A stretch of 42,949 bases of DNA from Escherichia phage ZH5. How positions within the stretch are numbered: the stretch's first letter is position 1; every line of letters begins with the position of its first letter. Both the position numbers and the translations under genes were made by a program. The notes beneath the pieces were generated by a model. The model was not told the DNA's origin. It did no database searches and saw only the letters and a program-made list of their open reading frames with translations. The stretch lies in sequence record OM864357.1; one strand, written 5' to 3'. Of this stretch, positions 1,556 through 42,949 are shown in pieces.

Positions 1556-1774
1556 ATGATGAAGTACCGAGATAAATTGAAACAACAGTTCGCTGGGCTT
1601 GAGAAGTTATCCGGTCCTGAATTGAGAAAACGCCGGGATGCGCTGAATCGCGCCGGTTATATGCGGATGAAACAATCTGCTACGTTCAGCACGAACGTTC
1701 GCGGCAAGACCAAAACAAAGGGAAGCAGCAAGGCGCCGCAAGGTTGGTACACTGCCGGGCAGTTCGGACGCTAA
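1556..1774 (+). CDS. Hypothetical early protein (72 aa, basic)
   Basis: First ORF after the non-coding left end; AAGGAG RBS 4-7 nt upstream of tandem ATG ATG. Confidence 0.6.
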   Translation: MMKYRDKLKQQFAGLEKLSGPELRKRRDALNRAGYMRMKQSATFSTNVRGKTKTKGSSKAPQGWYTAGQFGR

Positions 1775-1780
1775 TTACAG

Positions 1781-1808
1781 CCTATAGCATCCTATGGGGT
1801 GCTATGTG
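1781..1808 (+). promoter_or_regulatory. Conserved intergenic hairpin, copy 1 (cctatagcatcc / tatg / gggtgctatgtg)
   Basis: About 12-bp stem allowing G-U pairs; near-identical copy at 2699-2726; 25 nt upstream of the next gene start. Confidence 0.5.
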
Positions 1809-1832
1809 AAGTAATTAAACCAGGAGGCACTT

Positions 1833-1964
1833 ATGAGTGCGATGGAATTACATAAGGCAATCCTGGACGTATTGAGGGAGCTGGAGCGGGTTGACCTTCT
1901 CCCGACGGCTAGGATTGCGCTGAGTCGCTATCTCGAGCGGCTTACAACTATGAAAACTAACTAA
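1833..1964 (+). CDS. Small hypothetical protein (43 aa)
   Basis: AGGAGG RBS 5 nt upstream of ATG; below the 60-aa track cutoff; its stop overlaps the next start region. Confidence 0.45.
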   Translation: MSAMELHKAILDVLRELERVDLLPTARIALSRYLERLTTMKTN

Positions 1965-1975
1965 TGAGGTGTATT

Positions 1976-2563
1976 ATGATCAATTCAATAACTAACGCAA
2001 CCAAAAAAGTATTCAAATTAACCGCTGCTGGCAGCATTCGCAAGGCGCTGGGCGACGTGGTGGAAGCAAAACGCAATATTACTATCAGCGCTCTGTTCCA
2101 CGGCCTGATTAGTAGCAACGTTTCTTGGGCGACGGATATGCAGCGCAGCGATGCCGCTGACTTCGATATGGTGCTGCGTACACTGCTGCCCATCAAGTTC
2201 AACAAGGAATCCGGCAAGTACGAATTCCACGCTAAAAAGTGCTATGCGTCGGCTGAAAAGCTGGGCATTGAACTGGACACTATGCGTCTGGACTATAAAC
2301 AAGCTGACAAGCAAGGCCGTGAGGAGATTATTGCCAGCTTCTATAGCGCTTGCATGGCTCTGTACACTGCTGAAGCGGAGCAAGTGAAGAATGATGCCCT
2401 TGATGCCGATGCAGTGCGTCTGCAAGCTCTGGGGCGCGTTAAAAACGCCATCAAAAAAGCAAAAGAGACTGGCGTAAGCGATGCTGACCTTGTGTCTATG
2501 CTGGTATCGCAGGGCGTGGATGTACGCGCTGTACTGGATGCAACGTTGAAGGTGCCAGCATGA
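1976..2563 (+). CDS. Hypothetical early protein (195 aa)
   Basis: ORF in track from 1964; ATG at 1976 preferred because GAGGTG lies 4 nt upstream. Confidence 0.6.
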   Translation: MINSITNATKKVFKLTAAGSIRKALGDVVEAKRNITISALFHGLISSNVSWATDMQRSDAADFDMVLRTLLPIKFNKESGKYEFHAKKCYASAEKLGIELDTMRLDYKQADKQGREEIIASFYSACMALYTAEAEQVKNDALDADAVRLQALGRVKNAIKKAKETGVSDADLVSMLVSQGVDVRAVLDATLKVPA

Positions 2564-2691
2564 TTTATAAGGTTCCGGTTATCAAGTGGTGGGCGCTGTG
2601 CCCTGCGGCCAACGATGCGGACGCCTTCAACATCCCTACCCGCGGCCGTCACAACAAGTGGCGGTATGAGGGATTAGGGGAATACGTATAG
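2560..2691 (+). CDS. Small hypothetical protein (43 aa)
   Basis: ATG overlaps the upstream stop (ATGA); GAAGGTG upstream; fills an otherwise empty gap. Confidence 0.4.
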   Translation: MIYKVPVIKWWALCPAANDADAFNIPTRGRHNKWRYEGLGEYV

Positions 2692-2698
2692 TGGCAAG

Positions 2699-2726
2699 CC
2701 TATAGCGTCCTACGTGGCGCTATGTG
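2699..2726 (+). promoter_or_regulatory. Conserved intergenic hairpin, copy 2 (cctatagcgtcc / tacg / tggcgctatgtg)
   Basis: Same element as 1781-1808; a compensatory change converts an A-T stem pair to G-C. Confidence 0.5.
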
Positions 2727-2752
2727 ATTGCAACTAGCATATAGGGTTTCAA

Positions 2753-5721: not shown

Positions 5722-6755
5722 TGTATGGTGTTGACCTTAAACTACTGACAAAGATACTAACAACGCACCGACCTAGCTGGGGCAGTACCAAATGGTTTGA
5801 GCCGCTACTTAGTAGCGCTCTTGCCGGTGCAGAGCACTACGTTAGGGACGCTCATGGTAACTACTTTGTGCTAATTGGTAACTCCGAACAGAGTGATGTA
5901 GCGTTTACTTCACACCTCGATACAGTGGCCCGGCCTGGTAGTGCTGCGCCAGACATTGCAATCACTAACAAGGGTGTAATGTTCCTGCGGAATCCACAGG
6001 TGGCGGATTGTCTAGGTGCAGACTGTGGTGCTGGTATCTACCTGATGCTGGAGATGATTAGGCACGGTGTGCATGGGCGCTACTGCTTCTTCGTGGATGA
6101 GGAGGTAGGTTGTGAGGGCAGCAGAGCATCGGCCAAGGACGATACTGGCTTCTGGACTGGGGTCAAGGCAATGATTAGCTTTGACCGCCGAGGTGACGGT
6201 ATCATCACACATCAACGATACCAGCGTTGCTGCTCTGATACGTTCGCAAAAGAACTCGCGGCCCGGCTAGGGCGCACGGAAGCGCACTTACAGAAAGGAG
6301 TGTACACTGACTCTGCTGAGTTCGTAAGTATTATCCCAGAGTGCACTAACGTAGGCGTAGGGTACATGCACGAACATACTCCGGATGAGGTGCTGGACCT
6401 TAGTATTCTTGGCAGCGTACTGGAGCACGTACTCAGTCCGGGTACATTCAAGCACCTACCGATTGAACGGGATCCAAAGGTAATGGAACCAGATGCGTGG
6501 TTATCTGCCTCTGCGTATCCTTTTGATATGTCACTAGATGTTCCCCCTGCAGAGGATCCTCATTTACTAGCAGCATTCAAGGAGGTGTCACAGCTTTCTA
6601 AGCAGCAACTGATTAGTTGGGTATTGGATAACCCAGCAAGGGCCGCGGAATACATCATGGTGTATTCCGATTATGGCTTCAAAGAGGAACTGATTGAACT
6701 AGGCACCCGAGTTGTAGAAGACTGGGGCGGATACGATAATATTGTGGAGGGTTGA
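5721..6755 (+). CDS. MH-clan (M20/M28-like) zinc metallohydrolase / peptidase-like protein (344 aa)
   Basis: VAFTSHLDTV matches the M20 HxD[TV][STAV] signature; GADCGAG supplies the Asp; YCFFVDEEVG supplies the Glu-Glu; a later HEH may be the distal His. AGGAGG RBS; ATG overlaps the upstream TAA. Confidence 0.6.
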   Translation: MYGVDLKLLTKILTTHRPSWGSTKWFEPLLSSALAGAEHYVRDAHGNYFVLIGNSEQSDVAFTSHLDTVARPGSAAPDIAITNKGVMFLRNPQVADCLGADCGAGIYLMLEMIRHGVHGRYCFFVDEEVGCEGSRASAKDDTGFWTGVKAMISFDRRGDGIITHQRYQRCCSDTFAKELAARLGRTEAHLQKGVYTDSAEFVSIIPECTNVGVGYMHEHTPDEVLDLSILGSVLEHVLSPGTFKHLPIERDPKVMEPDAWLSASAYPFDMSLDVPPAEDPHLLAAFKEVSQLSKQQLISWVLDNPARAAEYIMVYSDYGFKEELIELGTRVVEDWGGYDNIVEG

Positions 6756-8227: not shown

Positions 8228-9498
8228 TAGTTGTGCGTGCAATGTGCACACAGAAGGTCTGGAACCGACTGCGAGAGCAGATACCCAAGTCTATGCTAGC
8301 GCCGGACACCTCGAACCTACTGGACTGGATAGGACTGTACTGGAACACGTACCCGGAGCACCAGGAGGTGCAGTGGGACGCGATGCAGAGCATGCTCAAT
8401 CTCCGCGCTGGGCACTTGTCCCGTGAAGAGCGGGTGATTATGGACGAGCTTATGCGAGGAGTACAAGCCGTACCACAGGATTCTGTGGTGGGGATTGTCC
8501 AGACCCTGAACGAGCTAGCCTACAGCGGAGAGGTTGCAGCTCTTACACAGCGCTACCAAGACGGTGAGGAGGTTGATTACCTGCTGGAGATGAAGCACCT
8601 CCAGCGCAAGTACGGTGATGGTGCTGCTGTTCATGATTCGCTACTGGAATGGGAGAGCGGAAGTGTTGATGAGATACTTGCCGCGACTGATGAAAGTGGC
8701 GGTCTTAAGCTGGGCGTATTTGAGCAACTCTCTAATAGCATTCGCGGGCTTCGCGGAGGTGATTGCATCGCCGTTGCTGCCCCTGTTGATTCTGGTAAAA
8801 CTAGCCTACTCGCTGCTATTGCTGTGGACTTTGCTAAACAGATGCAGCAGCAACCTGAAGTGTACGGGGATCGTCCGATTCTGTGGTTGGTTAACGAAGG
8901 TCCGGCGACGCGTACAGTGCCGAGGGTATATCAAGCGGCGCTGCATTGGACTCTGGCTGAGATTAAGGACAGGCACAGTAGGCAAGAGTTTGTGCCAGCC
9001 TATCTGGAGAAAGTAGGCAGGGCCGACCGTATTCGTATTAAGGCGGCACACTCCCTTACGATGGCTCAAATCTCTACGCTCATGGAGGAGATGCGCCCAG
9101 CGGTAATCATCATCGACATGGTGGCTAATATCCGTGGCGGTACTATGGAGAGTGAGCACCAGAATCTAGAGGCGAAGTGGCAGGAGCTGCGTATCCTGGG
9201 GTGTGAGAATGACTGTGCCGTTATCGGGACTATGCAGCTTTCACTTGAAGGTTATAACCTGCTGTTCCCACCGCTCACGGCAATGAAGCAGAGTAAGATT
9301 GGCGTACAAGGTGCTTTGGATTTGGCAATTATGATGGGGTGCTTGGACAGGAACGAGCAGCCGCACATGCAAAACATCCGTGGTATCAGTACACCCAAGA
9401 ACAAGATGGCACTATCAGGTAAAGAGTCGCTATTGCAGTTTGAGGTAGCATTCGACCCAGGCAGATGCCGCTTTAATGAGGGTCAGATTAACAAGTGA
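8218..9498 (+). CDS. Replicative DNA helicase (DnaB-like, RecA-fold)
   Basis: Walker A APVDSGKTSLL and Walker B-like VIIIDM. Start uncertain: TTG 8218 with GGAGG 7 nt upstream is preferred over GTG 8149 (inside primase) or ATG 8242. Confidence 0.75.
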   Translation: MDLIVVRAMCTQKVWNRLREQIPKSMLAPDTSNLLDWIGLYWNTYPEHQEVQWDAMQSMLNLRAGHLSREERVIMDELMRGVQAVPQDSVVGIVQTLNELAYSGEVAALTQRYQDGEEVDYLLEMKHLQRKYGDGAAVHDSLLEWESGSVDEILAATDESGGLKLGVFEQLSNSIRGLRGGDCIAVAAPVDSGKTSLLAAIAVDFAKQMQQQPEVYGDRPILWLVNEGPATRTVPRVYQAALHWTLAEIKDRHSRQEFVPAYLEKVGRADRIRIKAAHSLTMAQISTLMEEMRPAVIIIDMVANIRGGTMESEHQNLEAKWQELRILGCENDCAVIGTMQLSLEGYNLLFPPLTAMKQSKIGVQGALDLAIMMGCLDRNEQPHMQNIRGISTPKNKMALSGKESLLQFEVAFDPGRCRFNEGQINK

Positions 9499-9501
9499 CT
9501 T

Positions 9502-9532
9502 CCCTAGCGCCTTCCTAGAGGGCGCTATGTAG
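9502..9532 (+). promoter_or_regulatory. Third, diverged copy of the intergenic hairpin element (tagcgcc / loop / ggcgcta, then tgtagg)
   Basis: Shares the right-arm 10-mer GGCGCTATGT with copy 2; lies between helicase and the next gene. Confidence 0.4.
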
Positions 9533-9560
9533 GTACAAAGGCTCGGAGGGCTAAGTGGAA

Positions 9561-12324: not shown

Positions 12325-12419
12325 TGATAGGTGTACCCTTGGGTGGTGTAGGGGGTTAGGGTAACATGGAAATACGCTAGGGTCAAGTAGATAATTAAAT
12401 AAAATTATTCGTTGACTCT

Positions 12420-12432
12420 GGCTTGATTCTGT
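12420..12432. promoter_or_regulatory. 13-bp inverted repeat (ctgtga-t-tcacag) in the longest internal intergenic region; candidate operator
   Basis: Perfect 6+1+6 palindrome flanked by an AT-rich tract and TTGACT / TTGATT -35-like hexamers, about 55 nt upstream of the phosphoesterase gene. Confidence 0.3.
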
Positions 12433-12486
12433 GATTCACAGAGAATTAATGTGATACGAGTAGGAACAACATAAGAGAGGCAACCC

Positions 12487-17265: not shown

Positions 17266-17409
17266 TGCATGGTGTCACATGATGTGGCAGAAAGCAATAG
17301 AGCGGGGCGATGAAAGCTCCGCTAATGACTACCTGGAGATGTACAATCTCTGGGTAAGTCGAAACCTGTAGTTAGAAATACCGGACATAACCAAGGAGAC
17401 TAAGCGCCT

Positions 17410-19878
17410 ATGATTAGCGCCCTGAATACGGTTGTAGTACCAGAGGAAGCACTGGTGGAACGTCAGCTGGAGCTTGAAGAGACCTACAAGATTCGAGGTA
17501 TTGAGCGTGCTCGTAAGTTGATTACTGATGCTCTGCAGAATGGCGGGATTATGAACCTGCCAATGACTCAGCGCATGCTCACCTCTGCGTACGACGTGGC
17601 CTCTGTAGCCATTGAGGAAATGCGTAATGCCAAAGCCCCGGGTATCGGTGGAAAGTACCGCCGATTCCTACGCTTAGTCCCCTTGGATGTTCTAACTACT
17701 CTGAGCCTGTGCACAATGTTTGAGGCGTTCAGTGTTGCCCCTGGTGAGTCCGCCAGTCGCCGCCAGACAGCTCAGGCAGTGATGTCCGCTCTGGGTAGGA
17801 ATGTACAGTCAGAGCTGCTGGCCCTACAACTACGTAACGTTGCCCCAGCGTATATGGACCGGGTATATGAATACCTCACTGAGCGCCGTACTAAGTCGCC
17901 TACGCACATTCTGCGTACGCTCCGCGCCAGTGCTGAGAACGTGCACTATGGGCATGAGCCTTGGACCAACGCTCAGAATATTTCTGTGGGACGTCTGCTG
18001 TGTTCCGCAGTGTTTGAGACAGGGCTGTTCCAGTGGAAGACTGGTAGCGGGAACTTGAGTATGCTCTATCCCGCAGATAATGTTATGGAAGCATTTCAGC
18101 AGTTAGTGGAATCTGCTGACACTGTAACTATGAAGCCTCCGATGCTGGTACCGCCGGTGCAACATACTACACTGTGGGATGGTGGATACCTCACCCCAAT
18201 CGATAACCGTGGGACGTACCACAACTCGCACATTGACCGCGCCAGACTGCGTGAAGTAGCGGAAGCGTTTAAGTCTGCGGACGGTATCAAGAAGGCACTT
18301 AATAAGGCGCAGGAAACTCCTTATCGCATTAATAAGCGAATACTGGAACTGGTACAAGAAGCACGGGCCTTGGGTATTGGGGTAGGTATGCCCCGCTCAG
18401 TACCGGAGCCGAAGCCTGAGTGGTACTTGGACGGCGTGCCAAAAGAGAACTACACCGAAGAAGAACTGGACCGATTCGGTGAGTGGAAGACGCGTATGTC
18501 CCTATGGTACAGCGCAGACCGTAAGCGTGTATCGCAACTGCGTAGCCTGTTGACCACGCTGGAAATGGCGGAGGAATTCAAAGATGAGAAGGCCCTGTAC
18601 TTCCCGACTTGTGTGGACTGGCGTTACCGCCTGTACTTCAAGTCCTCGCTGCACCCCCAAGGTTCTGATTTGCAGAAGGCACTTCTTGAATTCGGACGAG
18701 GTAAACCTCTGGGAGAGAGAGGGTTGTTCTGGCTTAAAGTGCACGTCGCCACTTGCTTTGGTTATGACAAAACCCTATTCAAAGACCGCGCAGATTGGGT
18801 TGATAAAAATATGGCAGTTGTCCGCTCAGTTGCAGAGAATCCATTTGATTCGGACGCTTTTAAGCAGGCCGATTCACCGTGGTGTTTCTTGGCAGCAGTG
18901 CTCGACCTGGTGGCTGCTCTGGATTCTCCGTGCCCAGAAGAGTACATCTCCAGAACTCCGGTTGCTATGGATGCTACAAACTCAGGTGGGCAGCACCTCT
19001 CAGCGCTCCTGAGAGACCCTGTAGGCGGACGCCTGACGAACCTATACTGGGAGGGTAACGACAAGAAAGCGGACCTGTATATGGACGTGAAGCGCCGTAC
19101 GGACGAGAAGGTGATACTGGATCTGGACAAAGAGGATTTCGTTATCCAGAGCACGTACTGGAGAGAGAACGAAATCACTCGAAGCATGACCAAGCGTCCT
19201 AGCATGACCTACTTCTACAGCGCCACAGTGCGCAGCTGCAGCGACTACATCTTTGCAGGGGCCTGTGAAGAGGGGTATGAAGGAACAGACACGCACAGTC
19301 TCTGGAACTTATCATGCTACCTTGCCCCCAGAATGCGTAGCGCTATTGAGGAAGCTAACCCGGCAGCGGCAGCAGCTATGGGGTATCTGCAGAACCTCGC
19401 TAGGCGTGTACCTGCTAGTCAGCATCTGCAGTGGAAGACTCCACTAGGTGGGCTGGTGATGAACCGGTATTCTCAACGAGAGGAGGTGCGTGTACGTATT
19501 GACTGCATGAACTTGTCTGCCGTGCTGGTGCACAACCGTGACTTTAAGACCTGTAATAAGCGCAAGGCTGCCTCCGGTATTGCTCCGAACTTTGTGCATA
19601 GCCTAGATAGCACACACCTCATGATGGTGCTCTGTGCTGCAGAGGGTCTGGATATTGTCCCGATTCACGACTCAATGGCTACTCACGCATCTGATGTTGA
19701 TGCTCTGCACCGACATATACGCGAACAGTTTGTAAAGCTGTACGAGGAGCACGATCTTCTGGGGGATATTACCAGAGCAGCTGCCGAAGCAGGGGCGGAC
19801 CTCACAGACCTGGAGATGCCTGCAATCGGTACTTTGGACATCCGACAAGTGCTTGAATCTCCATTCTTCTTTTGCTAA
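17410..19878 (+). CDS. DNA-directed RNA polymerase, single-subunit T7-type
   Basis: PVAMDATNSGGQH corresponds to T7 RNAP motif A (D-x-x-x-SG) and PIHDSMATH to motif C (HDSF); 822 aa; AAGGAG RBS. Confidence 0.9.
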   Translation: MISALNTVVVPEEALVERQLELEETYKIRGIERARKLITDALQNGGIMNLPMTQRMLTSAYDVASVAIEEMRNAKAPGIGGKYRRFLRLVPLDVLTTLSLCTMFEAFSVAPGESASRRQTAQAVMSALGRNVQSELLALQLRNVAPAYMDRVYEYLTERRTKSPTHILRTLRASAENVHYGHEPWTNAQNISVGRLLCSAVFETGLFQWKTGSGNLSMLYPADNVMEAFQQLVESADTVTMKPPMLVPPVQHTTLWDGGYLTPIDNRGTYHNSHIDRARLREVAEAFKSADGIKKALNKAQETPYRINKRILELVQEARALGIGVGMPRSVPEPKPEWYLDGVPKENYTEEELDRFGEWKTRMSLWYSADRKRVSQLRSLLTTLEMAEEFKDEKALYFPTCVDWRYRLYFKSSLHPQGSDLQKALLEFGRGKPLGERGLFWLKVHVATCFGYDKTLFKDRADWVDKNMAVVRSVAENPFDSDAFKQADSPWCFLAAVLDLVAALDSPCPEEYISRTPVAMDATNSGGQHLSALLRDPVGGRLTNLYWEGNDKKADLYMDVKRRTDEKVILDLDKEDFVIQSTYWRENEITRSMTKRPSMTYFYSATVRSCSDYIFAGACEEGYEGTDTHSLWNLSCYLAPRMRSAIEEANPAAAAAMGYLQNLARRVPASQHLQWKTPLGGLVMNRYSQREEVRVRIDCMNLSAVLVHNRDFKTCNKRKAASGIAPNFVHSLDSTHLMMVLCAAEGLDIVPIHDSMATHASDVDALHRHIREQFVKLYEEHDLLGDITRAAAEAGADLTDLEMPAIGTLDIRQVLESPFFFC

Positions 19879-19902
19879 AAATTTAATGTTACAGGAGTAG
19901 GA

Positions 19903-24833: not shown

Positions 24834-24869
24834 GCCCCTGGTGCCTTCGGGTGCCGGGGGCTTTTTTTT
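24834..24869 (+). terminator. Rho-independent terminator
   Basis: 12-bp GC-rich stem (gcccctggtgcc / ttcg / ggtgccgggggc, with G-U pairs) followed by T8. Confidence 0.8.
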
Positions 24870-24914
24870 GTCCCTGTCTTAAGGGTCCTAGGGGTCTTTA
24901 ATAGAGGAACAAAT

Positions 24915-25475
24915 ATGAGAGAATTAGACGCCATTAATTTGACGCTGGAAGCCCTAGGGGAGTCTCGCGTTATGGATATCAACACTTCAAACCCTAGTGC
25001 GGGGTTAGCACGTTCTGCGCTCGCGCGTAATCGCAGAGGGTTGCTCAGTACTGGTTACTGGTTCAATGTAGTTGAGCGAGAGGTTACTCCTACGACTGAC
25101 GGTTTTATTAAAATTCCATGGAACCAGCTAGCAGTGTATGATGCGTGCTCCGACAATAAGTATGGTGTACGTGATGGAAACCTTTACAACCTGGTCGAGC
25201 AGGACGAGTACTTCGATTCCCCTGTTAGGATTAAGGTGGTGTTGGACCTCAACTTTGAGGATCTCCCAGAGCACGCCGCCATGTGGATTGCAAACTACAC
25301 TGCTGCGCAGGTGTACCTGAATGACCTTGGCAGTGACGGCAATTACGCCAACTACGCTGCAGAGGCGGAGCGGTACAAGTCCCTGGTGTTGCGAGAGCAT
25401 CTGCGTAACCAGAAGTACAGTACCAGTAAGACCAGATTCGCACGTCGTATTCGTCGTGCACGCTTCATGATTTAA
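24915..25475 (+). CDS. Tail tubular protein A (T7 gp11-like)
   Basis: 186 aa; position and size; first of the tail tube pair. Confidence 0.7.
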   Translation: MRELDAINLTLEALGESRVMDINTSNPSAGLARSALARNRRGLLSTGYWFNVVEREVTPTTDGFIKIPWNQLAVYDACSDNKYGVRDGNLYNLVEQDEYFDSPVRIKVVLDLNFEDLPEHAAMWIANYTAAQVYLNDLGSDGNYANYAAEAERYKSLVLREHLRNQKYSTSKTRFARRIRRARFMI

Positions 25476-28461: not shown

Positions 28462-31146
28462 ATGCCTGTAATTCAACCCAACCGACAGGGTCTAAATATC
28501 GGCGGCGTGCAATTGCAGGCCAACGAGGTTAACTTGCCCTCTACAGTCGGGGATGTAGTAGTAGACACGTCCAAAGCAAACCGCCTTGCAGCACTCTCTG
28601 GCTTCGTCCAGGACTTCGGTATAGGGTTTGATGCAGCAGTAAAAGAAAATGCAGCAGCAGCCACTGTGCGAGGTGCTATGGATGCCCAGGGTGCAGTAGA
28701 TGCAATGGCCTCTAAAGATGAGGCGGTACAGAAGCAGAATATATTTGTACGAGAAGCCTACCAGGATGGTTATGTATCTGCTGCGGCCTACGATTCTCTA
28801 GCTAAGTGGCGTACGGATAGTATTACTCGAGCTAAGAAGGCAGCTGAGGCTGGACTGACTGATGAGGAATTCCACCAGCAGGAGCAAGAGTATGTTCAAG
28901 CTATGTCTGACAAGCTCGGTATGTATCTTCCGGATATGTCCAAACAGTCCGCTACGGCGGTACTGCAACAGCTCCGTGCAACCAGCTTAGCTAACTACAC
29001 GGCCTTCCAGAAAGGTCGCGCAGAGTTTGCAGTAGCACAAGCAGACCGTGCGCTGGACCGTGGGCTCAGCTCCTCCGTTGATGAGTTCTATCAGCGCCTG
29101 GATGCTGGGCAGGGTGCTGCCGCGCAGATGTCAATTAAGACAGGGTTGGATAGTATCCTGGCAGCTGAGCACCTGGATAAGTCCAAGAAGTTGGACCGAG
29201 CCAAGCAGTATCTGGTCAGTGTAGCGCAGCAGACCCAGGACCCTCTAATCATCAACCAGTTGCAGGAAATGGCAACTAAAGAGCTTGGTGTTAACTCTGT
29301 AGACGTTAATGCTGCATTGTATCAGGAATTTAAGCGTGCTGGGACTCAGATTGAGACTCAGGCTCGCTTTGAAATCTCAGATGCAATTCAGTCTCTGGAG
29401 GGGCAGTCCCCAGAAGAGCAGGAGCAGACGATGCAGCGTATCCGCAACCGCGTGATTGAGCTATCTGCTACGGATGTACTAAGCCCCGGCACCAGTATGG
29501 AGTTCTGGAACAAGGCTCAGACTATCAGGGAGAAGACTGCCGATACACAGGCTTTACGTAGTGCCATCACAGGAAACCTTCCTACATCCACCTTAGCTGG
29601 TATGTTTAAAGGGGATTTGGATAAGGCCCGGTCACAGGTACTCAAAAACTTCCCAGACACTCCAGAGGGGAACTTGCAGCTACTGGCTTATGGTAGCAAT
29701 AGTAAAGATGCGTGGGCCATCAATGAAGCACACAAGCGCATGTCCTCGGATATGGCGCGCACCCTCACTACACTGGACCAGTTAGGTGAGGATGGGCAGG
29801 TGTCCAAGGAGAATGTCAATAGCATCAACCTGTGGGCCCAAGCATATAGTACCAGTACCGACTTAGGTAAGATGGCTCTGCTGTCTGAAGTCCCATCTGA
29901 GTGGCAGGGGGTGGTTCAGAAGGCCGTTGCACAGAACCCTAATAACGCTAGTAACACCATTCTGGACGACCTGCGTCGCCAGGCCCGTAACAAGGCTAGC
30001 GGGCGCTACAGCAACATCAGTAGCAACCCCACAGACAAAATGGTGGACCCGAGTCACACTGCTAATTGGTTCAGCTTCTTCGGCACAGCTGACGCGCAGC
30101 GCCAGGAAGCGCGCGCCGCTATGGAGGAAGAGTATCGGTACGTATATAATCACAACCCAGAGGCGTTAGTTGGTAAGGATCCTGATGATATCAACACGAT
30201 GCTCAAAGGTAACATCCAAGCCCGTAAGCTGGAGTTAGATATCTCTGGGGCTCCTCGGCACGTGTACCTGCCAGCTGGGACTTCTATTCAATCCCTAATG
30301 GGGGATTATCGAGGAGACCAGGAGCAGTTCAAGTCGTCTCTGCAGCAGCAGATTCAGAGCCAGGTAAACGCCTTAACTGACCCTAGCAACCTTGAACGAG
30401 TAGTAGTGCAAGCTGCCACAGCAGGTAACTCAGCGCAGAACATGACTGTCACCGTATTCGACAAGAAGGGAACCTTCCAGACTATGTCGGTGAATCTGCG
30501 TGACGTTCAAACCGCTGCGCAAGATGCATATGACAAAGCTCTGGCCGGTGAGATAAAGATTGGCAGTGAGCAAGTAGGTGTCCGTCCAGTTACCTTCTAC
30601 GATCATGACAACGGCAGGGTTGTAAGCACGCAGGTCAATGGACGTAACGGGGCAGGTGTAGAGCCATCGCTATTTAGTGAGATTCTCGCCAACACCATGC
30701 AGTTTGAGGGATTCCGAGAGGGTAAAGGCAACGGTAGTGTAGGCTTCGGTCTGCACAACAACTCCGGTATGCCTGTTCCGAAGAAGGTCACTATCGATGA
30801 TGGTATTAGTATTCTGAAATCCTCCCTGGAGCAGCAGTACATCCCGAACGTGAACAGACAGTTGCGCGGACAGGGCTTGAATGCCTCTGCGGATGCTATG
30901 AAGGTTATGGTTGATTTGAACTACCACGGCGGTAACGGAAGTTCTGGCCCAGTAGCTGAGGCTGTGGCACAAGTACGTAAGGCATCCAAGACCCCTGTAG
31001 GGGCGTACCAGTACCCTGTATCCGAGGCTCAGGGTAAGGCATGGCAAGCGCTACGGAATACTCCAGCTTACAAGCAGGCACAGCCTAAGCGTAAGAAATA
31101 CCTGGAGCAAGGACTGCGAAACTGGATGTTCGAGGTGACACACTAA
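28462..31146 (+). CDS. Internal virion protein B (ejection/core protein)
   Basis: 894 aa, Ala/Gln-rich; AAGGGGAAG RBS. Confidence 0.65.
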   Translation: MPVIQPNRQGLNIGGVQLQANEVNLPSTVGDVVVDTSKANRLAALSGFVQDFGIGFDAAVKENAAAATVRGAMDAQGAVDAMASKDEAVQKQNIFVREAYQDGYVSAAAYDSLAKWRTDSITRAKKAAEAGLTDEEFHQQEQEYVQAMSDKLGMYLPDMSKQSATAVLQQLRATSLANYTAFQKGRAEFAVAQADRALDRGLSSSVDEFYQRLDAGQGAAAQMSIKTGLDSILAAEHLDKSKKLDRAKQYLVSVAQQTQDPLIINQLQEMATKELGVNSVDVNAALYQEFKRAGTQIETQARFEISDAIQSLEGQSPEEQEQTMQRIRNRVIELSATDVLSPGTSMEFWNKAQTIREKTADTQALRSAITGNLPTSTLAGMFKGDLDKARSQVLKNFPDTPEGNLQLLAYGSNSKDAWAINEAHKRMSSDMARTLTTLDQLGEDGQVSKENVNSINLWAQAYSTSTDLGKMALLSEVPSEWQGVVQKAVAQNPNNASNTILDDLRRQARNKASGRYSNISSNPTDKMVDPSHTANWFSFFGTADAQRQEARAAMEEEYRYVYNHNPEALVGKDPDDINTMLKGNIQARKLELDISGAPRHVYLPAGTSIQSLMGDYRGDQEQFKSSLQQQIQSQVNALTDPSNLERVVVQAATAGNSAQNMTVTVFDKKGTFQTMSVNLRDVQTAAQDAYDKALAGEIKIGSEQVGVRPVTFYDHDNGRVVSTQVNGRNGAGVEPSLFSEILANTMQFEGFREGKGNGSVGFGLHNNSGMPVPKKVTIDDGISILKSSLEQQYIPNVNRQLRGQGLNASADAMKVMVDLNYHGGNGSSGPVAEAVAQVRKASKTPVGAYQYPVSEAQGKAWQALRNTPAYKQAQPKRKKYLEQGLRNWMFEVTH

Positions 31147-31195: not shown

Positions 31196-34100
31196 ATGGC
31201 TCAGTTTCTGAACCGAGAACCGAATCCACAGGAAAAGGATTCTGCTAAGGGCGCAACACTTAAACCTGCGCCTGCGCGTATAGATTGGAACGATGCGGGT
31301 GACGACGGCTTAAACGCACTGGAGCGTGCCTCCTTACTAGCACAAGCCAAGACACCTGCTACTACAGCTGCAGAGAGCTTTGCTTCTGGTATGGGCAACA
31401 GTATCATCGCCGCAGCTATCCGTAAAGCCTCTTCCCCAGCATTCGTCCCAGAGCAGGGGTTTGATGCTAAGAAACAACTAAGCACCGACTCCCGGGTTAA
31501 GTTGTATACTCCCAACCAGGAAGAGATTGATTACTTACATGGAGCAGTGTCTCTAGAGGACTATAACTACCGTATACAGCAGATGCTTGATCAGCGTCAT
31601 CGCGATCGCTTAATGGCTGACAACACAATAGCTGGGTTCGCTGGTGCCATAGCAGGTGACTCCCCATTTCCCCTAGCTCCGATGTCTGCGGCAGGTATCG
31701 CTGGTCGGGCTGGCTTAGCAGTACGCACTGCTATCCGCGCAGCGGATGTAGGTACGGCTGTTTATGCACAGGACCAACTGGGTCAGTCTGCGGCAGTTAC
31801 TGCTCTTGTAGCAGGTGTAGCTGGTCTAGACCAACTCTGGGATATCCGTAGAGCAGTGCGCGCGTCTACAGTAGCTGCCTCAACTACAAGAACTGCTGAG
31901 ACCGCACCTAATACTGCTACGGCAACTTCCCGCACTGCTCCGGAAGAAGTAGCAACAAGTCGCAATGGGGTAGATTCCCCTGCTGGCCCGTTTAATGCGC
32001 AAGCTGATAGTGCCGCGGCTGCTAAAACCACTGACGGTTTACCAGAAGGTTTAAGCTTGAACGTGCTGGATGATGTAGAGCACCACGCTTACTCTGGTGT
32101 ACGTGTACCCGGTATAGAGGTAGAAGTAAATCGCGGAGATAAGTTGGTTGGTGTTGTGCAGGCTTATCGTGTAGGTGATGATTTACAAGTAGCACATGCC
32201 TGGGTTGATAAATCCCTGCGTGGCAAGGGAGTAGGCGCGAGCATGTACAAAGCACTAGTTAAGCGCGCTACTGATGCAGGGTATGGCAACTTGTTGTCTG
32301 ATAGCTCAGTAACTGCGTCTGCTCAGCAGATGTGGCGCAAACTTGGTGCTACAAAAACCAAAGATTTTAAAGAACTAACGGACGGTATTGAAGGGCAGCG
32401 TTATGCGGTCTCTGCGGATGAAAAGTCCCCACTCTTTACTTTAGACTTGAAACGTCCTGTGTTTGACCCAGATGCGCCTACAACTCGTACAGCGAGGGAT
32501 GTTAATGTTACAGGAGTAGGAGAGGGGGAAGAAATCCTCACCAAAGCACTGGATGAACCGATAAAAGTCCTTAGAAACAACACTACTACTGTTAACATTA
32601 AAGCGCAGGACGTAGTTCGATTCCTAAAGACCTCTGAGCATTTATCTAAGGGTCAGAAGGCTATCCTGGACACCTTGGGCGATGCAGTACAGGACATTGA
32701 TTTTAAGTTGGTGGCAGGCTCTTCTAACCGTAGCCACTACAGCTTTCCACTGGTATCAAGAACTGATAGAGGTTTTATATCTTTACGTGCCCCTAAGAAA
32801 GCTAATGGAAGTACTTGGACAACTGTAGGTGACGCCCTACGCGCCATGGACGCCGATACTAGTCGAGTAGCAGTGCACGAGCTGATTCACGCTGCCACTA
32901 CTAGGGCCCTTAAGCGGAATCCTGAAATTGCTAGTAAGCTGGAAGAGGTGCGCGCTGCAATAGCAGCTGATTCAACCCTCAGTGATAAGCTTAAGTACTA
33001 CGCAAGCGATGTGCACGAGATGTTAGCTGGACTAGGTGATAGCCCTGAGTGGGTGGAATATCTCTCCAGAACTCAATCCCCTACCGGTAAGAGTATGCTC
33101 CGCCAGATTGGTGAGTATATCATGAATGCCCTTGGGATCCGTACTAAAGGCTCCGCTTTGGAGGACGTACTAGATGCGTATGAAGATGCTGTCAAGTGGA
33201 CTGCAAAAGACTACGCAGAACAAGTTCAGAGCTTCCGCAGCGAATCCTTCCAGGACCTAGCGGGTACATCGGTTAAGAATGAGGCCCTGAAAGCTCAGAC
33301 TATGATGGACACGGCCAAGCGTAAGTTAGCCACTATGTTCTCCCTGTATGATAACATCGCAGAGGGTAGTGAGGACCTGGCACGCTTATTAGTATCTGAT
33401 GCTACTGCTGTAGGCGGTCGTAAACCGTCTGTGGTGGACTTCAAGCGTAACCTTACGTTGGAGATGGATGCTAGTGCCAGTGTAGTTGAGGACGCTATAC
33501 TTGGTGCCCTCAAGGCCAAAGGTGTAGGTTTCATAGACCGCTTCTTCCACCGTAGCAACTTCCGAGCAGCTCGTGCTGACTTAGAAGGTCGCTTGGGCCG
33601 TTACCTGGACTCTGCGTACAGTGCTGAGGTTAATGGACGCCCTGTACCTCTGCCGGACTCTGACTTGGTTCCGCTAGTAGAGGCATACCGCAACTCCGGC
33701 TGGGCCAGTAAGTGGCACGATCACATGACTGCTGCCGGACTGGTGGATGACGGTACTCTGATTAAATCGGACTATTACTTCCCTCGCCAGTACAGTTACG
33801 ATAAGATGCGCCAAGGTATTGCAAACGGTCGCTCCCTGGATAATTATCGGGATCTGTTCCGTCAGGCACTGCGTGATGTGTATCCATCTATGGAGCCTGA
33901 GGTTGTTCAGCGCGTCGCTAAGGAAATGGTTGATGGTATCTACAACGGACGCTCCTCGGCCTCTGGTCCTATGTGGAAGCAACTCATCAATGGTATGGGT
34001 AATGATGAAGTAGTTATGGCCATGCGTAATGCTGGCGTAGACGAGAGTGCAATCCAGAGTTTCTTGGCAGGTAATGTCCGAGAATCTGGCGCTACCTCGC

Positions 34101-35458
34101 CTGCTAAGAACCTCCGTCAACGTACCCGCTTCAACATGGACAAAGAGTACATCGTAGATGGTCAGGTTATGCGCATGCAGGATCTGATGGATACTGACGT
34201 AGCCAAGGTTATGCATGGTTATACTAACCGAATGTCAGGTCGTGTAGGTATGGCTTACGCCGGAGTCTCTGACCTAAAAACACTAGAGACGATGATTAAT
34301 GAGTCCAAACACGCTCTGGCCGACCCTGGGAAGTGGGAGAAGACCGTTAATGACACCATCGACTTTATCTTAGGTGGGGCACCAGCCGACGCCGGGCAGA
34401 TGCCGGACCTGCTCCGTGCAGCCGGTAACATGGCCAACGCTACCATGCTTAAGAACTCTGGGTTGTACCAGCTTACTGACACCGCTCTAGCGCTGAAAGA
34501 GTTTGGTATGTCCCGAGTACTTCGCAGTATGCGTGAGCAGCCTTGGTTTAAAGAAGGTTCTGTAGCTATTCGCACTCCGGATATGGCTAGTCGTCTGGAT
34601 GCAATCCTACGTGGTAGTATCCAGAAGGAGATGCGCTTCCGCTGGTTGAATACGTACGCCGACGATAACCTGGACTTGACCCGTCAAGCCTCTTGGTTCA
34701 ACGTCACCCAGAACGTTGGGCAGGCTGCACGTCACGTCAACGGTATGAGCATGGTGCATCGGCTGCAAGTTAACCTGAACTCAGGTATTGTAGCGGATGA
34801 GCTCCAGCAGATGTTCAAGGGCGACGCTGAGGCGTTTAAGCGTCTGGAACGTTTCGGTCTTACTCGTGAAATCGCTGACCGGGCTATTGCTGCTAACAAA
34901 GCTAATCCTGGTGCTATGTTCCAGCCGGACCTGCAAATGCAAGTTGAGGTGGTAGGGACGCGTATGATGGACTATTTGGTGCAGCAAGTACGTACCGGTG
35001 AGACCTCGCACTTCGCCCAGTTCAACCCTATCGGCAAAGTAATTGTCGGCTATCAGAGCTTCGCCCTGGCTGCCACCAACAAGATTCTGCGCCGCGAGTT
35101 GAATGATGCCGGGTGGATTGGGGTTGCACACATCATGGCATACCAGTTCCCATTGATGCTTCTAGCAACTATGGCGAAGCACGGTATGGACGGCAAAGAG
35201 GCCGATACTCAGAAGCTTATCGCTGAGTCGGTTATGGGTATGAGTGCCATCGGTGGTATCTCGCTTCTGCAGGATATCTTCACTGGGGACTCTCCGCGTC
35301 ATTCTCTGGCGTCTATGGGCTACGTCACCGGGCTGTTGGGTGCGGTGCAAGCCCTGGCTACTGGGGATATGGATATCCAGACCTTCACTAAGCAGGTCCC
35401 GTTAATCCAGGAATTTGCACCTACGCGGGCTATCATCAATAACTTCGGAGACGATTAA
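31196..35458 (+). CDS. Internal virion protein C (largest ejection/core protein) with an embedded GNAT-like signature
   Basis: 1420 aa; AGGAG RBS; N-terminal Ala-rich low-complexity region; LRGKGVGASMYKAL (GNAT motif A-like) at about 32211-32243; HELIH at 32876-32890. Confidence 0.75.
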   Translation: MAQFLNREPNPQEKDSAKGATLKPAPARIDWNDAGDDGLNALERASLLAQAKTPATTAAESFASGMGNSIIAAAIRKASSPAFVPEQGFDAKKQLSTDSRVKLYTPNQEEIDYLHGAVSLEDYNYRIQQMLDQRHRDRLMADNTIAGFAGAIAGDSPFPLAPMSAAGIAGRAGLAVRTAIRAADVGTAVYAQDQLGQSAAVTALVAGVAGLDQLWDIRRAVRASTVAASTTRTAETAPNTATATSRTAPEEVATSRNGVDSPAGPFNAQADSAAAAKTTDGLPEGLSLNVLDDVEHHAYSGVRVPGIEVEVNRGDKLVGVVQAYRVGDDLQVAHAWVDKSLRGKGVGASMYKALVKRATDAGYGNLLSDSSVTASAQQMWRKLGATKTKDFKELTDGIEGQRYAVSADEKSPLFTLDLKRPVFDPDAPTTRTARDVNVTGVGEGEEILTKALDEPIKVLRNNTTTVNIKAQDVVRFLKTSEHLSKGQKAILDTLGDAVQDIDFKLVAGSSNRSHYSFPLVSRTDRGFISLRAPKKANGSTWTTVGDALRAMDADTSRVAVHELIHAATTRALKRNPEIASKLEEVRAAIAADSTLSDKLKYYASDVHEMLAGLGDSPEWVEYLSRTQSPTGKSMLRQIGEYIMNALGIRTKGSALEDVLDAYEDAVKWTAKDYAEQVQSFRSESFQDLAGTSVKNEALKAQTMMDTAKRKLATMFSLYDNIAEGSEDLARLLVSDATAVGGRKPSVVDFKRNLTLEMDASASVVEDAILGALKAKGVGFIDRFFHRSNFRAARADLEGRLGRYLDSAYSAEVNGRPVPLPDSDLVPLVEAYRNSGWASKWHDHMTAAGLVDDGTLIKSDYYFPRQYSYDKMRQGIANGRSLDNYRDLFRQALRDVYPSMEPEVVQRVAKEMVDGIYNGRSSASGPMWKQLINGMGNDEVVMAMRNAGVDESAIQSFLAGNVRESGATSPAKNLRQRTRFNMDKEYIVDGQVMRMQDLMDTDVAKVMHGYTNRMSGRVGMAYAGVSDLKTLETMINESKHALADPGKWEKTVNDTIDFILGGAPADAGQMPDLLRAAGNMANATMLKNSGLYQLTDTALALKEFGMSRVLRSMREQPWFKEGSVAIRTPDMASRLDAILRGSIQKEMRFRWLNTYADDNLDLTRQASWFNVTQNVGQAARHVNGMSMVHRLQVNLNSGIVADELQQMFKGDAEAFKRLERFGLTREIADRAIAANKANPGAMFQPDLQMQVEVVGTRMMDYLVQQVRTGETSHFAQFNPIGKVIVGYQSFALAATNKILRRELNDAGWIGVAHIMAYQFPLMLLATMAKHGMDGKEADTQKLIAESVMGMSAIGGISLLQDIFTGDSPRHSLASMGYVTGLLGAVQALATGDMDIQTFTKQVPLIQEFAPTRAIINNFGDD

Positions 35459-42822: not shown

Positions 42823-42949
42823 GGGGGGGGGGGGCCGTCTAGACGTCTAGATGGCTAGTTGGGGGCCAGCTGGGGGCCGTCTAGGGCGCACCAGGAGGGC
42901 CGTAGAGGCTCTCTGCGCGGTCTAATGGCTATCCCTAGTGCTATCCTAT
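42823..42949. repeat. Right copy of direct terminal repeat
   Basis: Identical to 1-127; preceded by one extra G (13-G run at 42822-42834). Confidence 0.85.

Follow-up and report, generated by a model that had tools for sequence, protein, structure and literature searches.

Repeated intergenic hairpins in the early region of Escherichia phage ZH5: candidate RNase III processing sites in the phage mRNA

Two kinds of previously described element bear on a set of short intergenic repeats in the genome of Escherichia phage ZH5 (OM864357.1), which are the subject of this work. The first comprises the irregular hairpins at which the early mRNA of phage T7 is cut by RNase III. The second is a motif with the consensus AGCCTATAGCGTCCTACGGGGCGCTATGTGAA, which was listed twice per genome as a "putative phage promoter" in KP34, SU503, SU552A, NTUH-K2044-K1-1 and F19, with nick sites offered as the alternative (Eriksson et al. 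2015, PMC4411677, Table 3). A polymerase chain reaction fragment carrying this motif was not transcribed in vitro by the purified KP34 RNA polymerase, and the real KP34 promoters were mapped as T(A/G)ATGTTACAGGAGTA (Lu et al. 2019, PMC6834552). Our search of the literature found no paper giving the motif a function other than that of a promoter or nick. We analysed the whole 42,949-nt stretch (hereafter, the window), which is a complete linear genome with exact 127-nt direct terminal repeats at 1-127 and 42823-42949. Since its early region is ~89% identical to those of the Escherichia phages Minorna and phiHAO78-1 and the Shigella phage SFN6B, the window is, judged by sequence, a Drulisvirus genome (KP34-like; Slopekvirinae, Autographiviridae). 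All its genes are read rightward, and three of its few intergenic gaps are occupied by hairpins, here termed A, B and C. We propose, with a probability of roughly 0.6, that these are sites at which the host RNase III processes and stabilises the early and middle mRNA.

Structure, strand and conservation of the hairpin family

The cores of hairpins A and B are the 28-mers GCCTATAGCATCCTATGGGGTGCTATGT at 1780-1807 and GCCTATAGCGTCCTACGTGGCGCTATGT at 2698-2725, and none of 100 dinucleotide shuffles matched the repeated 28-mer. An earlier sequence-only reading of this DNA had recognised both of these near-identical elements, with coordinates one nucleotide off, and had described each as a 10-12-bp hairpin; this holds for hairpin A, with an inner helix of 10 bp, while that of hairpin B has 9 bp in the window and 10 bp in most relatives. 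It missed that the 28-mers are only the cores of full hairpins of ~46 nt with a covarying outer helix, and that the motif had already been published (PMC4411677). The parts of the two hairpins are:

1772..1817, + strand: hairpin A, extended (covariance model 72 bits; RNA fold -19.8 kcal/mol, z -3.5)
1772-1778/1811-1817, + strand: outer helix of hairpin A, UAAUUAC/GUAAUUA
1779-1780 and 1809-1810, + strand: internal loop of hairpin A, AG facing AA
C1781-G1808 and C1782·U1807, + strand: isolated pair and adjoining mismatch of hairpin A
1783-1792/1797-1806, + strand: inner helix of hairpin A, closed by the loop UAUG at 1793-1796
2689..2736, + strand: hairpin B, extended (covariance model 65.3 bits)
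2689-2696/2729-2736, + strand: outer helix of hairpin B, with one internal mismatch; core at 2697-2728

Read from the base, the design of the family starts with an outer helix of 6-8 bp, followed by a conserved internal loop (AG/AA), a single C-G pair and a 5'C·U3' mismatch; above these stands the 10-bp inner helix, in which two G·U pairs are conserved, capped by the apical loop. The loop of hairpin B has 6 nt (CUACGU) in the window and 4 nt in most relatives. The relatives in question are 40 loci retrieved via the neighbouring 199-aa protein and not via the motif, from which the copies were extracted by a Hamming scan; a gapless alignment (A1) was made of the 66 distinct copies of the A/B family. 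Their tetraloops are mostly UNCG (UACG in 29, UGCG in 12), with UAUG in 18. Hairpin B was not found in 4 of the 40 relatives (L008, L026, L032 and L039). Three loci have an extra hairpin copy 88-92 nt 3' of hairpin A (L011 1533/1621, L027 2857/2945 and L030 2853/2945), with its own outer helix (GGTTAAT/ATTAACC) and a tiny possible open reading frame (ORF) standing alone between the copies. Klebsiella phage KPV811 (L019, 2070-2105) has a 5-nt insertion in the apical loop of hairpin A (…CATCCTACGGTATGGGGTG…), with both helices intact.

The alignment showed a consistent pattern of covariation. First, 93.6% of the pair cells are paired, a share that falls to 25-44% on sliding the 3' partners by 1-3 columns, and RNAalifold, unaided, predicts the same fold. 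Second, changes on both sides of the pair are seen in 11 of the 19 pairs. Among them is the stem difference, A-T in one copy and G-C in the other, that the sequence-only reading had taken to be compensatory: the corresponding columns 24/35 are A-U in 35 copies, G-C in 30 and broken in one, and the difference is fixed between the paralogues in the relatives. Third, the outer helices are unrelated in sequence yet complementary across copies and lineages (TAATTAC/GTAATTA, TAGTAGCA/TGCAACTA, TAATGGTA/TACCGTTA, GGTTAAT/ATTAACC and TAGTTAC/GTAACTA). Fourth, within the inner helix, two relatives have C-G in place of a U-A pair and a third has the intermediate C·A, and in another the loop-adjacent C-G has become U-A. 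Because of the excess of pairing over the slid partners, the double changes and the retained complementarity of the variable outer helix, selection on structure is strongly supported, on evidence that goes far beyond the single swap from which it was first proposed. The comparison across relatives suggested at that time has thus delivered both additional copies and covariation.

The hairpins are also polarised with respect to strand. The two G·U pairs are nearly invariant (U18·G41 in 65/66 copies and U25·G34 in 64/66), with the changes going to Watson-Crick pairs, and on the opposite strand they are A·C mismatches. Hairpins A, B and C fold as RNA at -19.8, -19.9 and -19.3 kcal/mol on the + strand, as against -14.8, -17.9 and -15.3 kcal/mol on the - strand, bearing out the RNA folding that had been anticipated for them. 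DNA folds of the hairpins are weak on both strands (-7 to -11 kcal/mol). Given the conserved G·U pairs, the better folding of the + strand and the weak DNA folds, the functional form is therefore the sense-strand transcript. Local conservation also peaks at the hairpins, with an identity of 0.93-0.97 compared to 0.55-0.87 in the flanking genes.

The third element is more diverged:

9495..9536, + strand: hairpin C, diverged paralogue (core 9502-9530; RNA fold -19.3 kcal/mol)
9495-9501/9531-9536, + strand: outer helix of hairpin C, with one bulged A
9502-9504/9528-9530, + strand: C·U, C-G and C·U of hairpin C
9505-9514/9518-9527, + strand: inner helix of hairpin C, with the loop CUA

Its sequence, TAGCGCCTTC-CTA-GAGGGCGCTA, includes the right-arm 10-mer GGCGCTATGT at 9521-9530 by which the sequence-only reading had detected a third copy at 9502-9532. 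While the hairpin is real, the 10-mer by itself is not significant: GGYGCTATGT with up to one mismatch has 9 matches in the window versus 6.6 expected, and an exact copy at 34910 is intragenic and forms no hairpin. When the whole window was searched, along the lines earlier proposed, with a covariance model of copies A and B, these two hairpins alone were retrieved (1766-1822 and 2684-2740), with hairpin C at E>10 and no other copies. Hairpin C nevertheless shares with A and B both stem arms (TAGCG/CGCTA) and the 3' GCUAUGU, as well as the design of 10 bp, C·U, C-G, mismatch and a 6-bp outer helix. Further, in 80 loci retrieved via the DNA polymerase gene, it is a 42-nt block that is invariant except for the loop in 58 loci and the window (37 distinct sequences), between variable flanks. 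As it has the arms and the design in common with A and B and is itself conserved, we treat it as a diverged paralogue of them, although the covariance model fails to retrieve it. In loci L042-L106, hairpin C forms the left border of a hypervariable slot 5' of the DNA polymerase gene: depending on the relative, 54 to 993 nt separate the hairpin from the start of the polymerase, and this stretch holds small ORFs and, in ZX6 and Buco, an HNH endonuclease gene.

Beyond the genus, the hairpins were traced in several other phages. Shigella phage Buco (Bucovirus) has a copy scoring 50 bits with the covariance model, 5' of its homologue of the 199-aa protein (58% identity), and a C-like hairpin 3' of that homologue. 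In its orthologue of hairpin C, the entire inner helix has been replaced with the pairing still perfect, and the sense strand folds at -35 kcal/mol versus -20.5 kcal/mol for the antisense. The gp6/gp7 gap in the early operon of Buco (L125, NC_048174; 2444-2470) contains, without mismatch, the T7 RNase III-site consensus CTCAAGG-N-CCTTTATGA, a pattern that in T7 itself occurs at R0.3, R0.5 and R1.1 (863-892, 1438-1470 and 5858-5889); the Buco segment folds like T7 R0.3. This consensus is absent from the 123 other loci examined, T7 itself excepted. To judge by this sequence match, a bona fide T7-type site appears to be interchangeable with hairpins of the present family in Buco. Pectobacterium phage PP16 (Corkvirinae) has a copy at 46.7 bits 5' of the 199-aa gene in which the internal loop is symmetrically altered by the deletion of one base per side. 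A second PP16 hairpin (L126, 2370-2420) looks chimeric in sequence, with a Drulisvirus-like base (CCUGUAAC...GUUAUGUGG) and an apex identical to that of T7 R1.1 (CAUUC-loop-GAGUG). In Erwinia phage Micant, the equivalent positions are occupied by hairpins that keep this design with an unrelated sequence. No copy was found in Vibrio phage OWB or T7, and the early region of OWB has no comparable repeat family. A blind hairpin scan of the distant loci was too noisy in coding sequence and was informative for Buco (L086) only. Retention of the design across genera with a replaceable sequence is what would be predicted for an enzyme that reads structure.

Correspondence to the RNase III sites of T7

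For comparison, we folded the T7 intergenic regions bearing the early RNase III sites, at positions that we take to be those of Dunn and Studier 1983 and that are consistent with the consensus matches in T7. In these regions, a lower helix that varies is joined through a conserved internal loop to an upper helix of 9-10 bp, also conserved and containing G·U pairs, which carries a loop of 4-5 nt; they adjoin an upstream stop codon and lie ~27-35 nt before a start codon (~120 nt for R1.1). Read in lock-step from the loop, R1.1 and R0.5 both consist of 10 bp, 5'C·U3', one Watson-Crick pair and an internal loop, and hairpins A and C, as well as a late hairpin at 24867-24913, follow exactly this loop-outward order; the overall design of the family agrees with that of R0.3 and R1 too. 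The T7 consensus ACUCAAGG-(stem-loop)-CCUUUAUGA has no match in the window with up to three mismatches, and the hairpins do not belong to the T7 sequence family. The placement of the hairpins is defined by the following features, of which the stop codons were read from the sequence:

1772..1774, + strand: stop codon TAA of the upstream ORF 1556-1774, inside the 5' arm of the outer helix of hairpin A
1833..1964, + strand: first gene 3' of hairpin A, with ribosome-binding site (RBS) AGGAGG at 1821-1826 and ATG at 1833
2689-2691, + strand: stop codon TAG, inside the 5' arm of the outer helix of hairpin B
9496-9498, + strand: helicase stop codon TGA, inside the 5' arm of the outer helix of hairpin C

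From the end of the core to the next start codon there are 25 nt in hairpin A (1807 to ATG 1833), 27 nt in hairpin B (2725 to ATG 2753) and 24 nt in hairpin C (9530 to GTG 9555), so that the previously suggested spacing of 25-40 nt holds for A and B and is just undercut by C. In all three, the next RBS begins a few nucleotides past the 3' arm, with the hairpin ending ~10-15 nt before it. The genes that follow the three hairpins are mutually unrelated.

The known preferences of RNase III can be compared with these hairpins feature by feature. The Escherichia coli enzyme requires roughly two helical turns, and its cut must be separated from the tetraloop by 11 bp or more (Pertzev and Nicholson 2006, PMC1540722). 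The ~20-22 helical positions of two turns are present in hairpin A as 10 bp, C·U, 1 bp, a 2x2 loop and 7 bp; in hairpin B likewise, with an 8-position outer helix; and in hairpin C as 10 bp, C·U, 1 bp, C·U and 6 bp. The 10-bp inner helix with the stacked C·U amounts to 11 positions, equal to T7 R1.1. Internal loops confine cleavage to a single strand, so that a protective hairpin remains at the 3' end (PMC1540722), and an internal loop that is a candidate for such a restrictor is conserved in A, B and C. In the proximal box, a G-C pair blocks binding at position 2 and catalysis at position 4, the latter being U·C in R1.1 (PMC1540722); with the numbering inferred from the text of that paper, hairpins A, B and C are free of these antideterminants, having A-U at position 2 and 5'C·U3' at position 4. 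For the distal box, UA/UG is optimal (PMC1540722); hairpin C matches it exactly (U-A/U·G), and A and B have C-G/U·G.

The late hairpin was examined as well:

24867..24913, + strand: possible fourth site, a late hairpin of 10 bp, 5'C·U3', one Watson-Crick pair, a mismatch and 3 + 5 bp, unrelated in sequence

It sits directly between the terminator at 24834-24861 and a gene that starts at 24915; ZX6 has the same sequence, and Buco keeps the hairpin with a changed inner-helix sequence. It may represent a fourth processing site.

By analogy with T7, the hairpins would be structured segments, of ~21-22 helical positions each, in a rightward polycistronic early/middle mRNA. RNase III would bind the helix of about two turns, and the internal loop would limit it to a single cut on the 3' side. 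As the upper stem-loop product of R1.1 has 28 nt, placing its 3' cut 13 nt past the loop (PMC1540722), the corresponding cuts are predicted near 1809/1810 in hairpin A, 2727/2728 in hairpin B and 9530/9531 in hairpin C. The upstream mRNA would thereby be left ending in the intact inner hairpin, which would protect it against 3' exonucleases, and the downstream mRNA would gain a short unstructured leader. RNase III as the partner, the cut positions and the effects on stability and translation are thus what we infer from the T7 sites. Of the three functions that the sequence-only reading had offered, a T7-like RNase III site fits best, and a second, RNA stability, would be part of the same mechanism.

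Several points weigh against this interpretation. The covariation events mostly separate paralogue classes, which leaves about ten independent events, perhaps 8-12. The distal box of hairpins A and B deviates from the optimum (C-G/U·G). RNase III is able to bind such motifs without cutting (PMC1540722), and the in vivo sites of the E. coli enzyme fit the box consensus poorly (PMC5371410). The core is conserved more strictly than the known needs of RNase III would require, down to the unpaired A14, G15, A44 and A45, which hints at an additional or different, sequence-specific partner. Finally, our literature searches, some of them too loosely framed to be telling, found no transcriptome, end-mapping, rnc-dependence or RNase III work for any Drulisvirus. 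Because the in vivo sites fit the boxes loosely, we gave the architecture more weight than the box match.

The strictness of the core is also the starting point for an RNA operator or stability element that would be read by a sequence-specific phage or host protein without cleavage by RNase III—a translational repressor site 5' of the RBS, a 5' or 3' protective hairpin, or an uncoupled site at which RNase III only binds. The near-invariance of the core, including the unpaired internal-loop bases, across Drulisvirus, Bucovirus and Kotilavirus would be in keeping with this, as would the constant location of hairpin A directly 5' of the same 199-aa gene and the documented binding of RNase III without cutting (PMC1540722). 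However, whole inner helices have been replaced in hairpin C of Buco and in PP16 with retention of the design, the sequences that Micant has at these positions are unrelated, the genes 3' of the three hairpins are unrelated to each other, and none of the neighbouring proteins was seen to have an RNA-binding fold or family; we hence regard such an operator as doubtful. A similarly speculative idea combines the strict core with processing by RNase III: the near-invariant core might dock a sequence-specific factor, either a phage early protein or a non-cleaving RNase III, that tunes or blocks the processing of the early mRNA, and/or the repeated cores might serve as portable cassette junctions among Drulisvirus, Bucovirus and Corkvirinae.

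Promoter, terminator and DNA-level explanations

The published annotation as a phage-specific promoter was assessed against the mapped promoters. T(A/G)ATGTTACAGGAGTA occurs in the window exactly at 19884-19899 and 32503-32518 and with one mismatch at 496-511 near the left end; no KP34-type match is found at hairpins A, B or C, and the promoter sequence bears no resemblance to the motif. A variant with three mismatches at 12447-12462, in the 12325-12486 gap (85% identical over 20 nt; TTAATGTGATACGAGTAGGA), may be an unreported middle promoter; a long hairpin with an AU-rich top (12376-12422) precedes it. The promoter scan gave no sigma-70-like match overlapping the hairpins.

Hairpin promoters of the N4 type have a stem of 5-7 bp and a 3-nt loop, are extruded on the template strand and are read by a virion RNA polymerase. 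The hairpins of the window have a 10-bp stem plus an outer helix, are favoured on the non-template strand and are weak as DNA, and this type was rejected, though no search was made for a relative of the very large N4 virion polymerase. A promoter, possibly active only as an N4-like extruded hairpin, would agree with the motif being the longest repeat in these genomes and lying 5' of genes (PMC4411677), and the in vitro assay used only linear duplex DNA (PMC6834552). Nevertheless, the KP34 RNA polymerase made no transcript from the motif (PMC6834552), the mapped promoter is located elsewhere and has nothing in common with it, no sigma-70-like site overlaps, and it is the non-template strand that favours the hairpin. 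A phage promoter is therefore not supported, and neither is the hairpin-type promoter put forward by the sequence-only reading, which is further opposed by the weak DNA fold; the chances of a promoter are very slight.

A transcriptional RNA signal acting on the host or phage RNA polymerase—a terminator, an attenuator, a pause site or a put/nut-like antiterminator—would be consistent with a stable nascent-RNA hairpin at gene boundaries in an operon read by two polymerases. An intrinsic terminator is ruled out by the missing U-tract: no U-run follows hairpins A, B or C (downstream sequence GAAGUAAUUA). The terminator scan found nothing at the three hairpins, and the real terminator of the genome, at 24834-24861, is quite different in appearance. 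Moreover, the dispersal of three copies, in place of a single one just 3' of the promoters, is unlike put/nut, and a search of the whole window against Rfam returned 0 families at or above the gathering threshold. A signal of this kind is unlikely.

Finally, the repeats might act at the level of DNA, as a phiKMV-like nick site, a recombination or homing-endonuclease target or junction, or a protein-binding palindrome. This would accommodate the repeated conserved cores at the borders of variable gene cassettes, as seen in the varying distance between hairpin C and the polymerase gene, and the presence of an extra copy 88 nt after hairpin A in some relatives. However, a duplex site explains neither the complementary outer helices of unrelated sequence nor the conserved G·U pairs with A·C on the opposite strand, and the DNA hairpins are weak. 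The phiKMV nick consensus, which we take to be CGACNNNNNCCTACTCCGG, has one match with three mismatches in the window, at 30778 (3.1 expected), and none at the hairpins. A DNA-level role is thus improbable, and an exchange of cassettes at the repeated cores is more plausibly a side effect.

Gene setting and comparison with known systems

Hairpins A and B bracket a conserved gene:

1964..2563, + strand: gene for the 199-aa protein, conserved

The location of hairpin A directly 5' of this gene is a synteny common to Drulisvirus, Bucovirus and Kotilavirus, and in Micantvirus a structure-only analogue occupies the same place. The protein is 86-95% identical within Drulisvirus and ~30-58% in Bucovirus, Corkvirinae, Micantvirus and Vibrio phages. 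It matches no Pfam family and no PDB sequence. Its AlphaFold2 model (confidence score, pLDDT, of 81) is mostly helical with one long 53-residue helix, for which Foldseek recovered nothing with E<0.1 in the PDB and only uncharacterised phage proteins in BFVD; neither the sequence nor the structure searches gave a hint of RNA binding. The neighbouring proteins have PHROGs matches of unknown function only, and nothing at or near the threshold in Pfam. The sole RNA polymerase gene identified is T7-like and lies at 17410-19878, as placed via synteny with ZX6 and Buco; in the 144-nt gap 5' of it there is a pair of hairpins (17300-17360, z -4.6). Near the left end, at 106-471 and also at 42928-42945, a cluster of short repeats (GCTATCCCTAGTGCTATC) has CCTAG(C/T)GCTAT in common with the hairpin arms; these repeats may be comparable to the short arrays beside the T7 terminal repeats.

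KP34-like phages (Drulisvirus) belong to the most frequently used candidates for therapy against Klebsiella, and the KP34 RNA polymerase is under development for RNA synthesis. If the hairpins are indeed RNase III sites, this would correct the 2015 "putative promoter" label on the sole long repeated motif in these genomes, and provide a first post-transcriptional map of the early operon with cut sites testable at the nucleotide level. It would also extend the T7 strategy of cutting early mRNA at irregular hairpins to phiKMV-like Autographiviridae, through an independent sequence family. In phage engineering, insertions or deletions that break the hairpins could then change the expression of neighbouring early genes. 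The motif itself is known; to judge from the literature that could be searched, its hairpin nature, the third locus, the spread beyond the genus and the RNase III interpretation are unpublished.

Three described systems offer points of comparison. The promoter-early stem-loop (PeSL) cassettes of T4-type phages are repeated conserved stem-loops that flank small variable early genes and include an early promoter. Like them, the hairpins of the window are repeated stem-loops beside variable early genes and could mediate cassette shuffling via recombination; however, no promoter is detectable at the window hairpins, and shuffling is suggested here by the variable neighbours only. The motif of Eriksson et al. 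2015 (PMC4411677) has the same sequence and the same two early-region positions as hairpins A and B, but was treated there as a linear promoter or nick site, and the hairpin, the outer helix, the third copy and the copies outside the genus are absent from that account. The sites R0.3, R0.5, R1, R1.1 and R1.3 of T7 differ in belonging to a set of ten, as against three copies in the window (four counting the late hairpin), and the internal loop of the window hairpins is smaller and more symmetric (2x2 or 1x1), with cleavage sites that are predicted only. In the remaining respects the two sets are alike: both are paralogous intergenic hairpins in the early mRNA of enterobacterial Autographiviridae phages, both join a conserved core to a variable, covarying lower helix, and both start at or beside the upstream stop codon, ~25-35 nt before the next start.

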